Part shown: piece after piece, positions 22,094 through 26,342 of the stretch
Layout of the letters: each line of letters starts with the position of its first letter
Position numbering within the stretch: the first letter of the stretch is position 1
Assembly: GCA_001804415.1 (NCBI GenBank)
Contig: MHGA01000027.1
Coordinates: forward strand, 1-62,521
Length of the DNA stretch: 62,521 bases
Direction: 5' to 3'
DNA from: Candidatus Aquivivens invisus
GTDB lineage: Bacteria; Omnitrophota; Gorgyraeia; Aquiviventales; Aquiviventaceae
Notes under the pieces: model-generated
Databases searched by the model: none
What the model saw: the letters and a program-made list of their open reading frames with translations, nothing else
Told to the model about the DNA's origin: nothing
Made by a program: the position numbers and the translations under genes

Positions 22094-23836
22094 TCAAGAC
22101 GTCGCTGGCCTTGACGATTGCGGCTTGACGATCGTCGCGTCAAACAGATTCACGATCTCCTGCACGATCGGCGGCATGGGGGGAGCGGGTGCGGCTGGAG
22201 GAGCGGAGGCCGACGCATTCGCTGCGCTGATCGCCTCAGCCTTGGGTGCGGGCGGTGGGGAGGGGAGATCCGGCAGGGTCGCGTACGTCACGGCCAGCGA
22301 GCGACCGAAGAGCTCGCTCATCACCCCTGCAATCACCCGCATGTTCTCCGGCTCGCTGAGGACCTCCTGGTGCAGCGCCACCGACGGGATGCCGATCTGA
22401 ATTTTCTCGCCGTCGATGCCAAGCACCTTGGCGTCCATCAGGTACGAAGCCAGGGACATTTTCCGCTTCCCCAGGCGCTCCAGGAACGCCTCCCATCGAC
22501 TCGCCACTTCTTCGAACGCCACGAGGCCTGCCTGCCCCCGCACCCCCGAGCTTTCTTGCGAAAGCAAGAATGGGGGAAGCGGCGGGGGCGCAGGCAGGGG
22601 GCTCGCCATCGCTGCAGGATGGATCGTCGCGGCAGGGGGAGGTGGAAGGTTCTCCTCGTCCTCTGAGGGCGGAAGGGTGCGCGCCAGTTGTTCCAGCCGT
22701 TCGAGTGCCTGATCCAGCGACACCCAGGACTCCCTCGTCGCCAGTTGAATGAGGACCAGCTCCGCCACCGCCTGGGCAAACGGGCTGCGGCGAGCCACGT
22801 CATAGGCGCCCGTCAGCACCTGCATCATCATCAGCAGCTCCTGGGCGTTGGTGCGAGCGGCTTGCGCTTCCAGGCGGTTCAGGATGTCCTCCGGCACGTC
22901 GATCAATTGGGCGAGCAGCCGCTTCCGGTCAGCGGCTTTATTGAGCGTCGTCGCCACGAGCAGATGCCGCAGGTGCATGAGGAGATCAGCCAACAAGCGG
23001 CTGACGTCCTTGCCAAGATTCACTTGTTGGGTCAAGAGGGTGACGGCCGTCGAGGCATCGCGGTCCAGCACGGCTTGCGCCCATTGGAACAGGACATCCT
23101 GTTCAAGGCCTCCCAGCAACTGCGCGACGTCTTCTTCACGAATGCGTGCCTCGCAGAAGCTCATCGCTTGCTCCAAGATCACCTCGGCATCCCGGAGGCT
23201 GCCTTCGGCGGCGCGGGCGATGGTATAGAGCGCCGCCTCGTCGACGGCGACCTTCTCAGCCTTGACCATGCGCTGCAACACCTCGACGATCGTCTTGACC
23301 TCGATCCGCCGGAAATCGAATCGCTGGCATCGCGAGAGGATCGTTGGAGGGACTTTGTGTGGCGCGGTGGTGGCGAAGATGAACTTCACGTGCGCCGGAG
23401 GCTCTTCGAGGGTTTTGAGGAGCGCGTTGAAGGCGTCGTGGGTGATCTGGTGGACTTCGTCGATGATGTAGATGCGAAACGCGCCGTGGGACGGGGCGTA
23501 CTTGACCGTCTCCCGCAAGGCGCGGACTTCGTCAATCCCGCGGTTGGAAGCCCCGTCCACCTCGATGACGTCGAGGCTTAAGCCGGCGGTGATCTGCCGG
23601 CAGCTCGTGCAGGTTTGGCAGGGTTTCGGCGTCGGGCCCTTCGCGCAGTTGAGGCTCTTCGCGAGGATCCTCGCCGCGGAGGTCTTCCCCACCCCGCGCT
23701 GCCCCGCGAAGAGATAGGCCTGGCCGATCCGCTTGGAGGCGATCGCCCGGCTGAGGGTGTCGGTCACATGGGCTTGGCCGATGAGCTCCTCAAGCGTCTG
23801 CGGCCGGTACTTGCGGGCGAGCGGAATATAACTCAT
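22094..23836 (-). CDS. dnaX: DNA polymerase III gamma/tau
   Basis: LARKYRPQ, GQRGVGKTS, DGASNRGIDE, DEVH, AFNALLKTLEEPP, SRCQRF. Confidence 0.97.
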   Translation of the reverse strand: MSYIPLARKYRPQTLEELIGQAHVTDTLSRAIASKRIGQAYLFAGQRGVGKTSAARILAKSLNCAKGPTPKPCQTCTSCRQITAGLSLDVIEVDGASNRGIDEVRALRETVKYAPSHGAFRIYIIDEVHQITHDAFNALLKTLEEPPAHVKFIFATTAPHKVPPTILSRCQRFDFRRIEVKTIVEVLQRMVKAEKVAVDEAALYTIARAAEGSLRDAEVILEQAMSFCEARIREEDVAQLLGGLEQDVLFQWAQAVLDRDASTAVTLLTQQVNLGKDVSRLLADLLMHLRHLLVATTLNKAADRKRLLAQLIDVPEDILNRLEAQAARTNAQELLMMMQVLTGAYDVARRSPFAQAVAELVLIQLATRESWVSLDQALERLEQLARTLPPSEDEENLPPPPAATIHPAAMASPLPAPPPLPPFLLSQESSGVRGQAGLVAFEEVASRWEAFLERLGKRKMSLASYLMDAKVLGIDGEKIQIGIPSVALHQEVLSEPENMRVIAGVMSELFGRSLAVTYATLPDLPSPPPAPKAEAISAANASASAPPAAPAPPMPPIVQEIVNLFDATIVKPQSSRPATS

Positions 23837-23852
23837 GCAAGCGCTACAGTCC

Positions 23853-23911: not shown

Positions 23912-24005
<94 letters not shown>

Positions 24006-24011
24006 CACGCA

Positions 24012-24470
24012 TTAGGCTCGAGATCCGACGGTCGATTTGCGTAAGATGGCGGCGCAGTCGCCGGCCAACACGCCTCTCGTTACGGTCAGCTTGCGGTTCA
24101 GCCGTTCATTGGCCGGCAGATCAATCGCCGAACCGCAGGCGCCCTGCTTCACGTCATCGGCCCCGAACACCAGACGATTGATCCCGCCAAGCAGCATCGC
24201 CCCCACACACATGCAGCACGGCTCTTGCGTGACGTACAGCGTGGCGTTGGCCAGTTGCTCAGACTCGACGGTGTTCGCCGCCTGGGTGATGGCGATGATC
24301 GCGGCGTGCGCGGTGGGATCCCGCAGGGCTTTCGTCTGGTGATGCGCGCGGCCGATCACGCGGGACCGCTGGACGACCACCGCCCCGACGGGTTTCTCGC
24401 GCGCTTTCAAGGCATCCTGCGCCTCTTTCAGCGCCTCCCGAATGTACTGCTCATCGAGTTTTGTGGCCAT
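24012..24470 (-). CDS. tadA: tRNA adenosine(34) deaminase TadA homolog with catalytic Glu replaced by Ala
   Basis: PVGAVVV, DPTAHAAII (HAE expected), YVTQEPCCMC, GACGS. Confidence 0.88.
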   Translation of the reverse strand: MATKLDEQYIREALKEAQDALKAREKPVGAVVVQRSRVIGRAHHQTKALRDPTAHAAIIAITQAANTVESEQLANATLYVTQEPCCMCVGAMLLGGINRLVFGADDVKQGACGSAIDLPANERLNRKLTVTRGVLAGDCAAILRKSTVGSRA

Positions 24471-24485
24471 AAGGCTCAAATGAAA

Positions 24486-24559
24486 TGCGCCCAAGTGGGA
24501 TCGAACCACTAACCTTCGGCTCCGCAGGCCGACGCTCTATCCAATTGAGCTATGGGCGC
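24486..24559 (-). tRNA. tRNA-Arg(GCG)
   Basis: GCGCCCA acceptor; stem TCGGC/GCCGA around loop CT-GCG-GA; no encoded CCA. Confidence 0.93.
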
Positions 24560-24582: not shown

Positions 24583-25959
24583 CTAGGATGACTTTCTTTC
24601 AAGTTCTTTCGCCGTGACGCCAAGCTGCTCGATGGCTTTGTCCGGATCGGCGACGTAAAGCTGGCAGAACTTCGTCACCTCATGGACATCACTCACCCGC
24701 AGCTTGGTATGCAGGAGCCGCAAGATGTTCGCCCGGCGGACGGTTTCGGCGATGATGTGCGAGGCCAAAAACCCCGAGGCTTGCGCCAGACGATCACGAT
24801 AGGCGCTGCTGGGGGACGTCTCCACGGCTCGATGGCGCGCGCTGTCATAGGTCCAAACCGGTGAGAGCAACACCACGTTCTTTTCCATCCCGGATGTTTC
24901 CACCACCTCGCCGACGACGCGGGTGATCTGCCCCCAGAGATTCAGCCGCTTCAGGACGATCAACACATCCACTAGGTTCGTGAGCGTCTCGGGGGCGTTC
25001 ATGGGCTCATTCTGCAACCGCAGCAGCGTCTCGCGGGCGGTGGAGGCATGGAGGGTGCCCATGCAGTACTTGCCCAGATTGATGGCGGTCATGAGGTCGC
25101 GCGCTTCCCGCCCCCGGACCTCGCCGATGATGATGCGGTCGGGCCGCATCCGGAGGCTGTTCTTCACCAGGGCCTCCATGGTGAGGCTGCCGGAGCTCTC
25201 GAGTCGCGAACAGGCCTCGAGGAATTTGGTGTTGAGCTCCAGGGTATCTTCGATCACCACCATCCGGTGGGACCAGGGCACAAAACTCAGCAGCGCGTTG
25301 AGCAAGGTCGTCTTCCCGGCGCCTGGTTCCCCTGAGATCAGCAGATTCGCCGGACGGATCGACAGCCCCTCCACGTAGATCCAGAGCTGGGCCGCTAGCT
25401 CGTAGGTACACAGCCCCTTGTCGATGAGCTCGATGATGCTCAGCGCCCGCTCCTTCGCGCGAGTGATCGTTACCTGGGGGCCGAACGGCGAGCGGACGAT
25501 GTTCACCCGCCCGCGGACCTCCGAGAGCTCCACATCGTTGATCTGCGACAACTCCGCGCGGCCCCCGAAGACGATCAGCTTGTTGACAAACATCTCGAGG
25601 GCCCGGTTGTTGGGAAACCGCTTCTCGGTCTTGACCAGTCCCTGCCCGGTCTTGTGCACGAAGATCGATTCGGTTGAGTTGATCATGATATCTTCCACGA
25701 GGGGATCTTGGAGGAACTCCTCAATGAGCTCGTAGGAGATGAAGGCGCGCAAGAAGGCCTTCCGGGTTGGCTCGTCGGCCAAACGCACCCGCAGCTCATC
25801 GCCTAACTCGCCCGACACATCATCCAAGGCGTCCGCGGCCAGCGCATGCCGCTCCTGCTGGTCTTGGATCAGCGTCATCTTGCCCCGGAGGCGGTCGAGG
25901 AGCTTCTCGCTCAGCCCCATCCACTTGGCGTCTGTAAATTGCACGGTTGGGTCGCTCAT
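24583..25959 (-). CDS. Type II/IV secretion or pilus ATPase (CpaF/VirB11/FlaI-like, archaeal-style)
   Basis: Walker A GEPGAGKTT, IEDTLEL, LRMRPDRIIIGEVRG, GTLHA. Confidence 0.88.
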   Translation of the reverse strand: MSDPTVQFTDAKWMGLSEKLLDRLRGKMTLIQDQQERHALAADALDDVSGELGDELRVRLADEPTRKAFLRAFISYELIEEFLQDPLVEDIMINSTESIFVHKTGQGLVKTEKRFPNNRALEMFVNKLIVFGGRAELSQINDVELSEVRGRVNIVRSPFGPQVTITRAKERALSIIELIDKGLCTYELAAQLWIYVEGLSIRPANLLISGEPGAGKTTLLNALLSFVPWSHRMVVIEDTLELNTKFLEACSRLESSGSLTMEALVKNSLRMRPDRIIIGEVRGREARDLMTAINLGKYCMGTLHASTARETLLRLQNEPMNAPETLTNLVDVLIVLKRLNLWGQITRVVGEVVETSGMEKNVVLLSPVWTYDSARHRAVETSPSSAYRDRLAQASGFLASHIIAETVRRANILRLLHTKLRVSDVHEVTKFCQLYVADPDKAIEQLGVTAKELERKSS

Positions 25960-25973
25960 CGATTGCTCAGACA

Positions 25974-26063
25974 CGGAGAGGGTGGGATTCGAACCCACGA
26001 GCCACCTTGTGGGTGGCTACACGATTTCCGGTCGTGGTCCTTCGGCCACTCGGACACCTCTCC
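25974..26063 (-). tRNA. tRNA-Ser(GGA), with C instead of U at position 33
   Basis: CACGA-CCGGAAA-TCGTG anticodon arm, long variable arm. Confidence 0.92.
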
Positions 26064-26133
26064 ATTTTAGCGGAAAAAGCCTTCCTCCTGTGTAACGTGG
26101 AACATTACACCACCCCGATGATTGACACGCATG

Positions 26134-26223
26134 TGGCGGAGAGGGTGGGATTCGAACCCACGAGACCCTTGCGGGCCTACCGCTTTTCGAGAGCGGCTCC
26201 GTCAACCACTTGGATACCTCTCC
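26134..26223 (-). tRNA. tRNA-Ser(CGA)
   Basis: CCGCT-CTCGAAA-AGCGG, long variable arm, encoded CCA. Confidence 0.95.
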
Positions 26224-26241
26224 TACGCAACCTGTCCTAAA

Positions 26242-26329
26242 CGGAGGAGGCAGGATTCGAACCTGCGGTCCACTTGCGTGGACAACGGTTTTCAAGACCG
26301 CCGCCTTAGGCCGCTCGAGCCACTCCTCC
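26242..26329 (-). tRNA. tRNA-Ser(TGA)
   Basis: GCGGT-CTTGAAA-ACCGT, long variable arm. Confidence 0.95.
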
Positions 26330-26342
26330 ACATTCCCCATTC

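Follow-up and report, generated by a model that had tools for sequence, protein, structure and literature searches.

A TadA orthologue without the catalytic glutamate, conserved beside tRNA-Arg(GCG): a probable bacterial pseudo-deaminase

Introduction

The tRNA(adenine34) deaminase TadA (EC 3.5.4.33) is treated as a single-purpose enzyme, essential in Escherichia coli, and lineages that abandoned inosine have been described as simply losing the tadA gene. Replacement of tRNA-Arg(ACG) by tRNA-Arg(GCG) is on record for some Mollicutes, in which tadA is lost (PMC3711424, Yokobori et al. 2013), as well as for Thermotogae and Spirochaetes (PMC8007984), and Spirochaetes are also reported to have lost the inosine modification (PMC6063277). 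In Mollicutes the loss was preceded by a weakened enzyme, the TadA* of Mycoplasma capricolum, with replacements of two arginines (Staphylococcus aureus R70 and R94), the same two that are missing from the protein described below (PMC3711424). Here we analyze a stretch of DNA of 62,521 nucleotides (contig MHGA01000027.1 of Candidatus Aquivivens invisus, as a whole referred to as the window), in which a tadA orthologue without the catalytic glutamate stands directly behind a tRNA-Arg(GCG) gene, together with its relatives from a large clade of uncultured bacteria of groundwater and soil.

The contacts of TadA with its substrate are known in detail. In the S. aureus enzyme, zinc is bound by H53, C83, and C86, the proton shuttle is E55, the N3 atom of adenine is read by N42, I26 and H53 stack on the base, and the 32-38 pair is read by K106 and N123; a long C-terminal helix of TadA is essential for binding of the stem-loop, i.e., the anticodon loop (PMC8216470). 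In addition, R70 clamps the backbone at G37 and R94 does so at G36, and the ribose of U33 is held by D104 (PMC3711424). Residue numbers of the window protein, used throughout, equal the S. aureus number plus 2.

Results

A glutamate-less TadA next to tRNA-Arg(GCG)

The gene, its two diagnostic codons, and the adjoining tRNA gene are located in the window as follows.

24470..24012, minus strand: tadA orthologue without the catalytic glutamate (P0001), 152 amino acids (aa), from the open reading frame (ORF) and its translation
24302..24300, minus strand: codon 57, GCG, alanine at the position of the proton-shuttle glutamate (E. coli E59, S. aureus E55)
24341..24339, minus strand: codon 44, CAC, histidine replacing asparagine (S. 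aureus N42, E. coli N46)
24559..24486, minus strand: tRNA-Arg(GCG), predicted by ARAGORN and matched by the Rfam tRNA family at 71 bits

A sequence-only reading of this DNA had reported a GCG codon where GAG is expected (within DPTAHAAII), RAHHQ where HN is usual, intact zinc ligands in an intact ORF, and a tRNA-Arg with the loop CT-GCG-GA placed 15 bp upstream on the same strand, and all of these features are indeed present. The ORF runs from the ATG at 24470 to the stop codon at 24014-24012, and its product (GRAHHQTKALRDPTAHAAII...QEPCCMC) carries H-H-Q at codons 43-45 and the zinc ligands His55 (24308..24306), Cys85, and Cys88 (the two cysteines in PCCMC). A longer frame of 165 aa with a GTG start at 24509 overlaps the tRNA and was rejected in favor of the ATG at 24470, which also matches the length of most homologues (152 aa). 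The anticodon of tRNA-Arg(GCG) occupies 24525..24523 in a CU-GCG-GA loop, and the 3' end of the tRNA lies exactly 15 nt upstream of the tadA ATG.

Four metagenome runs of groundwater and soil from different studies, one of which may be the sample behind the window assembly, gave contigs that span at least 23921-24538, with the gene and both tRNA junctions, and show 0 differences; no variant or minority letter is seen in them at codon 57 or at the anticodon. A sequencing error, previously judged unlikely, is thus excluded by identical contigs in four runs and by the lack of any GAG variant among them.

Clade-wide loss of the glutamate under purifying selection

A protein search provided 120 clusters of closest homologues (64-100% identity), which together with the window protein make a set of 121 sequences. 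Glu57 is found in 0/121; the position is taken by Ala (77), Thr (17), Gly (11), Val (8), Pro (3), Ile (2), Cys (1), or Leu (1), and in one further member by Ser, within a motif that also has Gly for Ala56. In six orthologues compared at the DNA level, the corresponding codons are GCG, GCC, or GTC. His44 and the zinc ligands H55, C85, and C88 are each present in 121/121 sequences, and the invariant positions of this set comprise His44, Gln45, D51-P-T-A-H55, E83-P-C85, M87, and C88. The wider TadA family, represented by clusters formed at 50% identity with few clade members among them, has Glu57 in 144/150 and Asn44 in 143/150 representatives.

The ORF is intact in all clade loci fetched. Pairwise ratios of nonsynonymous to synonymous substitution rates (dN/dS, or omega) among the six orthologues are 0.10-0.27, with dS of at least 0.86 (saturated). 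Across these pairs of genomes, the glutamate-less TadA proteins are 68-80% identical, the RecR proteins 71-78%, and the DnaX proteins 53-67%. Only position 57 drifts, solely among small or uncharged residues. As judged from these sequence comparisons, the protein is under strong purifying selection, functional, and constrained. Of the check proposed earlier (a conserved HAA in aligned orthologues and dN/dS below 1), the absence of the glutamate (0 of the 120 closest homologues have it) and the low dN/dS are borne out, as is the claim that the catalytic residue was lost and the protein retained, with purifying selection extending across the whole clade. The accompanying suggestion of a gene caught early in decay fails, the loss being old and clade-wide with saturated dS, and a young pseudogene is rejected by the omega values along with conservation equal to that of RecR.

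Some peripheral sequences deviate from this pattern. The protein of locus L004 (L004 9887-10282) lacks residues ~104-127 and reads SLCSMC, and the tRNA-Arg(GCG) of that locus has U32 for C32; P0207 is devoid of both His55 and Cys88; P0198 and P0125 are truncated; and P0122 reads HPI, resembling the HPV of ADAT3. A separate small group with HAV at the motif (P0186, P0292, P0294, P0299, P0303, and P0320; locus L012 3276-3740) is nested in Rhodothermus/Rhodothermales-like TadA (112/120 neighbors with HAE) and keeps the Asn in 4/6 members; no tRNA is present on its single 6-kb contig (L012). Here the glutamate seems to have been lost independently and more recently, so that such loss may be a recurrent phenomenon in TadA.

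Coupling to the wobble base of the neighboring tRNA-Arg

In all nine clade loci (the window, L001-L006, L093, and L094), tRNA-Arg(GCG) lies directly upstream of the glutamate-less gene, and tRNA-Ser(GCT) lies just downstream of it in the same 9/9. The usual order in the clade is tRNA-Ser(TGA)-Ser(CGA)-Ser(GGA)-Arg(GCG)-gene-Ser(GCT)-dnaX-recR, and the tRNA order of the window is matched in L002, L003, L006, L093, and L094. HAE-containing proteins from an alignment-based scan of metagenome contigs (all canonical TadA, among the matches listed) were used as controls; wherever a tRNA-Arg lies within 3 kb of such a gene, its anticodon is ACG (12/12, among the matches listed). More specifically, tRNA-Arg(ACG) is immediately upstream of an HAE tadA in L013, L014, L016, L023, L028, and L073, and a tRNA-Arg-tadA-tRNA-Ser arrangement is found in five of these canonical relatives (L013, L016, L023, L028, and L073). 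The distant HAE relatives L008 and L009 carry tRNA-Arg(ACG) as well, the contexts of the rest of L007-L012 being uninformative. No mixed state (HAE with GCG, or a glutamate-less protein with ACG) occurs among the clade and control loci, and no tRNA-Arg(ACG) was detected by ARAGORN in the window or in any clade locus fetched.

Comparison of the clade GCG tRNAs with 10 tRNA-Arg(ACG) genes located near canonical tadA revealed a common acceptor stem, D arm, and anticodon stem-loop (CU-A/G-CG-G/A-A). By this alignment, the GCG tRNA has the body of a bacterial tRNA-Arg in which A34 became G; the proposed change of the substrate to G34 is in this respect confirmed, the tadA-linked tRNA showing G34 in place of A34 on an otherwise bacterial Arg-ACG-type body. 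An archaeal origin or import of the GCG tRNA was considered and rejected, since its body aligns with bacterial ACG-type tRNAs. The 3' CCA is not encoded in the clade tRNA-Arg(GCG) genes and is encoded in most tRNA-Arg(ACG) genes beside canonical tadA.

Because G34 reads CGC and CGU directly, editing of A34 to I34 would no longer be needed, and we infer that G34 decodes these two codons with no editing step. Of the Arg codons in the window, 11% are CGA; a U34 tRNA-Arg(UCG), absent from its 62.5 kb, is therefore predicted to be encoded elsewhere in the genome.

A remodelled pocket and RNA-facing surface

A column-by-column comparison between the clade (121 sequences) and HAE members of the wider family (144 representatives) revealed replacements at a number of near-invariant TadA positions, namely V26 to K/R, N44 to H, E57 to various residues, R72 to Q, L82 to Q, A89 to V/I/L, R96 to G, and H126 to R/K. 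The C-terminal motif FFxxxRR is lost, the tail reading LRKATVGAR and ending about 8 residues past LL. Kept in the clade are V28, H55, C85, C88, D106, K108, and N125, and newly invariant residues include H44, K/R26, Q82, N66, and E122, among others. Mapped onto the contacts of the S. aureus enzyme, these changes would mean that the clade gave up the chemistry, the residue that reads adenine, two clamps on the backbone, and the helix motif, and that it retained zinc binding, the platform for base stacking, and the residues that read U33 and the C32-A38 pair. Since H44, K/R26, Q82, and other residues have become invariant anew, the comparison argues for a pocket that was remodelled, not merely disabled.

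Family assignment and orthology

TadA is by far the best family for the protein in NCBIfam (NF008113), with a score of 141 bits that falls under the curated equivalog cutoff of 150; Pfam matches (MafB19-deam and dCMP_cyt_deam_1) cover the deaminase domain only. The best solved relative is E. coli TadA (1z3a; E 1e-34), aligned gap-free over residues 7-144 with about 48% identity in the core. An AlphaFold model reached a predicted local distance difference test (pLDDT) score of 80, weaker in the C-terminal third, and its Foldseek matches are limited to the TadA/cytidine deaminase (CDA)-like core at a template modelling (TM) score of about 0.6.

When the two trait columns were left out of the alignment, FastTree grouped 45 glutamate-less sequences into a single clade (Shimodaira-Hasegawa (SH)-like support 93), with a small HAE group (P0127, P0128, P0133, and P0201) as its sister. 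IQ-TREE recovered the core clade with an SH approximate likelihood ratio test (SH-aLRT) value of 98 on a stem of 0.31 substitutions per site and leaves the HAE lineage closest to it unresolved. The protein encoded at L013 is most similar to the FastTree sister group, and its locus has the canonical composition tRNA-Arg(ACG)-tadA(HAE, N44, FFKKKR)-tRNA-Ser(GCT). Among 120 relatives of the L013 protein, HAE is present in 119/120, the Asn in 120/120, and FFxxx[RK] in 118/120; four of them are titled 'tRNA adenosine(34) deaminase TadA [Candidatus Omnitrophica/Omnitrophota bacterium]' at NCBI, and in both whose loci were looked up (L096 and L097) tadA is followed by tRNA-Ser(GCT). The relatives of the glutamate-less gene are themselves labelled Candidatus Omnitrophota (L003 and L005) or 'uncultured Planctomycetales' (L001, L002, and L004). 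As it occupies the tadA slot, the glutamate-less gene is best read, on sequence and synteny, as orthologous to tadA by position, its changes having arisen inside a radiation labelled Omnitrophota.

Organization of the surrounding tRNA cluster

Other features of the locus in the window are the following.

24005..23912, minus strand: tRNA-Ser(GCT), predicted by ARAGORN, beginning 6 nt past the tadA stop
22094..23839, minus strand: dnaX, from the ORF, with recR further downstream; syntenic anchor of the tadA slot
25973..26330, minus strand: tRNA-Ser(GGA), tRNA-Ser(CGA), and tRNA-Ser(TGA), predicted by ARAGORN, the upstream part of the same tRNA cluster

Pfam matches to DNA_pol3 and RecR are found at the syntenic position in relatives. 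The tadA coding sequence is wedged between two tRNAs (gaps 24471-24485, 15 nt, and 24006-24011, 6 nt), and tRNA processing would free a tadA mRNA with nearly no untranslated regions; no obvious Shine-Dalgarno sequence is seen. Similar gaps separate tadA from tRNA genes in L001, L003, L006, and L093 (9-24 nt) and in the canonical sister L013 (16 nt). Inside the cluster of the window, between tRNA-Ser(GGA) and tRNA-Arg(GCG), is a gene for a CpaF/VirB11-type ATPase (24583-25959, minus strand), of which an 81% identical copy is found in L001; since the two tRNAs are directly adjacent in L003, L006, and L093, this gene is a lineage-specific insertion into the tRNA operon.

Further upstream, rtcB-archease-serS directly precede the tRNA cluster in L006 and L093, and L094 has two genes between archease and rtcB. 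Intein-type insertions occur near the locus in relatives, such as an RtcB with an intein splicing domain (L006 3156-6134) and a ribonucleotide reductase with a LAGLIDADG domain (L005 142-4167). ARAGORN also predicts a 'tmRNA' at L093 9192-9665, which coincides in part with tRNA-Ser(TGA) and would encode an implausible tag of 32 residues; this prediction is probably spurious.

Discussion

Overall, the protein is probably a conserved, non-deaminating pseudo-deaminase orthologue of TadA, i.e., neither an A-to-I enzyme nor a decaying gene. Since the glutamate is required in this fold, with the E59A exchange reportedly abolishing the activity of E. coli TadA (a result attributed to Wolf and colleagues in 2002), it presumably no longer deaminates adenosine. 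By analogy, it would represent a bacterial single-gene parallel to, and convergent with, eukaryotic ADAT3. The label given to it by the sequence-only reading, a tRNA-binding pseudo-deaminase, thus holds in part: the conserved pseudo-deaminase stands, and tRNA binding is a possibility at most, two backbone arginines and FFxxxRR being gone and D106, K108, and N125 remaining.

As to function, we tentatively propose, with rather less than even confidence, that the protein, as a zinc-containing dimer, continues to dock on the anticodon loop of tRNA-Arg(GCG) and serves as a non-catalytic binding factor. G34 would then sit in the remodelled, more polar pocket (H44, K/R26, and Q82), and the protein would act as a tRNA-Arg-specific factor with a candidate role in chaperoning, processing, regulation, or protection. 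Guanine equals the reaction product hypoxanthine plus a 2-amino group, which would project from the very edge of the purine that the Asn-to-His replacement faces. E. coli TadA is reported to stay bound to its product and co-purifies with tRNA-Arg(ICG) (PMC8216470), which makes it plausible that an O6-purine at position 34 can be bound.

Several points speak against these proposals. The C-terminal helix motif, described as essential for binding of the anticodon stem-loop, is gone together with the equivalents of R70 and R94 (positions 72 and 96), and the AlphaFold model is of moderate quality. Small metatranscriptomes from the same sites gave no coverage over the gene, and the degenerate peripheral members may indicate that parts of the wider clade are losing it. 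The presumed absence of tRNA-Arg(ACG) and of a second active tadA from this genome is derived from synteny and from 158 kb of clade DNA, and the taxonomy of the clade is taken solely from record titles.

Among competing explanations, the one that fares best, though we consider it unlikely, is a neo-enzyme, in which zinc chemistry with a new catalytic set (His44 and K/R26) would act on a new substrate, such as G34 (guanosine to xanthosine), another RNA, or a nucleotide. Such an enzyme would fit the invariance of the zinc ligands, E83-P84, and DPTAH while the old glutamate position drifts among small residues, as well as the three new invariant polar residues (H44, K/R26, and Q82) lining the former base pocket; a change of function typically shows itself as a long stem branch with tight conservation after it, as seen here, and guanine and guanosine deaminases have the same fold. 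To our knowledge, however, no active deaminase of this fold lacks the glutamate, every characterized one needing that of its HxE or CxE motif. Moreover, the contacts described for S. aureus TadA would place His44 near N3 of the purine ring, remote from the zinc-bound water (PMC8216470), the K/R interchange at position 26 speaks against a precise catalytic role, and the zinc ligands are lost in some divergent members. An equally speculative and improbable idea is that the glutamate-less TadA is a G34-specific factor of tRNA-Arg(GCG), providing either a new wobble-base chemistry through zinc, His44, and K/R26 (e.g., G-to-xanthosine or other modification of G34) or an essential non-catalytic step of maturation or quality control. 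If true, it would reveal a second, editing-independent function of TadA and could explain similar dead copies in other phyla.

A still less probable alternative is a partner role like that of ADAT3, with the protein serving as the non-catalytic subunit of a heterodimer whose active TadA-type deaminase is encoded elsewhere and edits some A34 tRNA. Replacement of Glu by a small hydrophobic residue, retained zinc ligands, and a shortened C-terminal helix are all shared with ADAT3 (PMC8216470), and canonical HAE TadA proteins do exist under the same phylum label. The gene, however, fills the canonical slot from tRNA-Arg to tRNA-Ser(GCT) and so looks orthologous and not like an extra paralogue, its product of 152 aa is without an extra N-terminal tRNA-binding domain, and the sole tRNA-Arg seen adjoining it has G34. 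A search for deaminase folds over 158 kb of clade DNA detected no second such ORF; the DNA inspected comprised 62.5 kb from this genome and about 130 kb from its relatives.

That the protein is still an A34 deaminase, with a glutamate that is dispensable or replaced and a tRNA-Arg(ACG) elsewhere in the genome, is very improbable: its zinc site is intact, as is much of its core, but E59A is said to abolish activity in E. coli, the Asn that reads adenine N3 is gone as well, and the tRNA gene that corresponds by position to the substrate gene has GCG in 9/9 loci, with no ACG in any clade locus. An artefact (a GAG-to-GCG error) or a recent pseudogene in early neutral decay has virtually no credit left, for it could appeal only to the change being in a single codon and to a few truncated peripheral homologues, against identical contigs in four runs, a glutamate absent from 120/120 homologues, omega of 0.10-0.27, and RecR-like conservation.

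With the pseudo-deaminase reading, this deep and species-rich clade would have dropped the chemistry of TadA and yet kept the protein as tightly conserved as RecR, which implies a function of the TadA scaffold that is independent of editing. The sister lineage and the clade provide a matched before/after pair, with ACG, HAE, Asn, and FFxxxRR on one side and GCG, HAx, His, and a short tail on the other. Since several clade members are titled 'tRNA(adenine34) deaminase' by the Joint Genome Institute (JGI), the presence of tadA is an unsafe proxy for inosine in comparative studies of tRNA modification. Positions N46, V28, and L84 (E. coli numbering) tune the substrate choice of TadA, and their natural variation may be of interest to base-editor engineers. 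A full-text literature search yielded no paper on a glutamate-less bacterial TadA orthologue that is remodelled and constrained.

Side by side with bacterial TadA (NF008113; 1Z3A and 2B3J), the window protein has the same fold core, zinc ligands, genomic slot, and D106/K108/N125; it differs in having no Glu, His in place of Asn44, the replacements R72Q and R96G (which remove backbone contacts to nucleotides 37 and 36), no FFxxxRR, and a neighboring tRNA with G34 instead of A34. With ADAT3/Tad3 it has in common that it is a TadA-derived pseudo-deaminase in which a hydrophobic residue (Val in ADAT3) stands in for Glu, the zinc ligands are kept, the C-terminal helix is short, and the protein is retained under selection (PMC8216470), so that it may be viewed as a natural bacterial counterpart of ADAT3. 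Unlike the window protein, ADAT3 is a paralogue that assists an active partner on A34 tRNAs and has an N-terminal tRNA-binding domain as well as a C-terminal Asp capping the zinc; the window protein is the orthologue itself and, at 152 aa, has neither an added domain nor a conserved acidic residue in its tail, and neither a partner nor an A34 substrate was seen in the DNA inspected. Finally, with the editing-free CGN decoding of Mollicutes, Thermotogae, and Spirochaetes, this locus shares the replacement of tRNA-Arg(ACG) by tRNA-Arg(GCG). The sequence-only reading had already pointed to GCG in a few bacterial lineages, and since these cases are published (PMC3711424, PMC8007984), editing-free decoding is not in itself new. 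The new part is the keeping of a dead TadA: in Mollicutes tadA was lost, whereas here it has been kept for long, remodelled, and strongly constrained.

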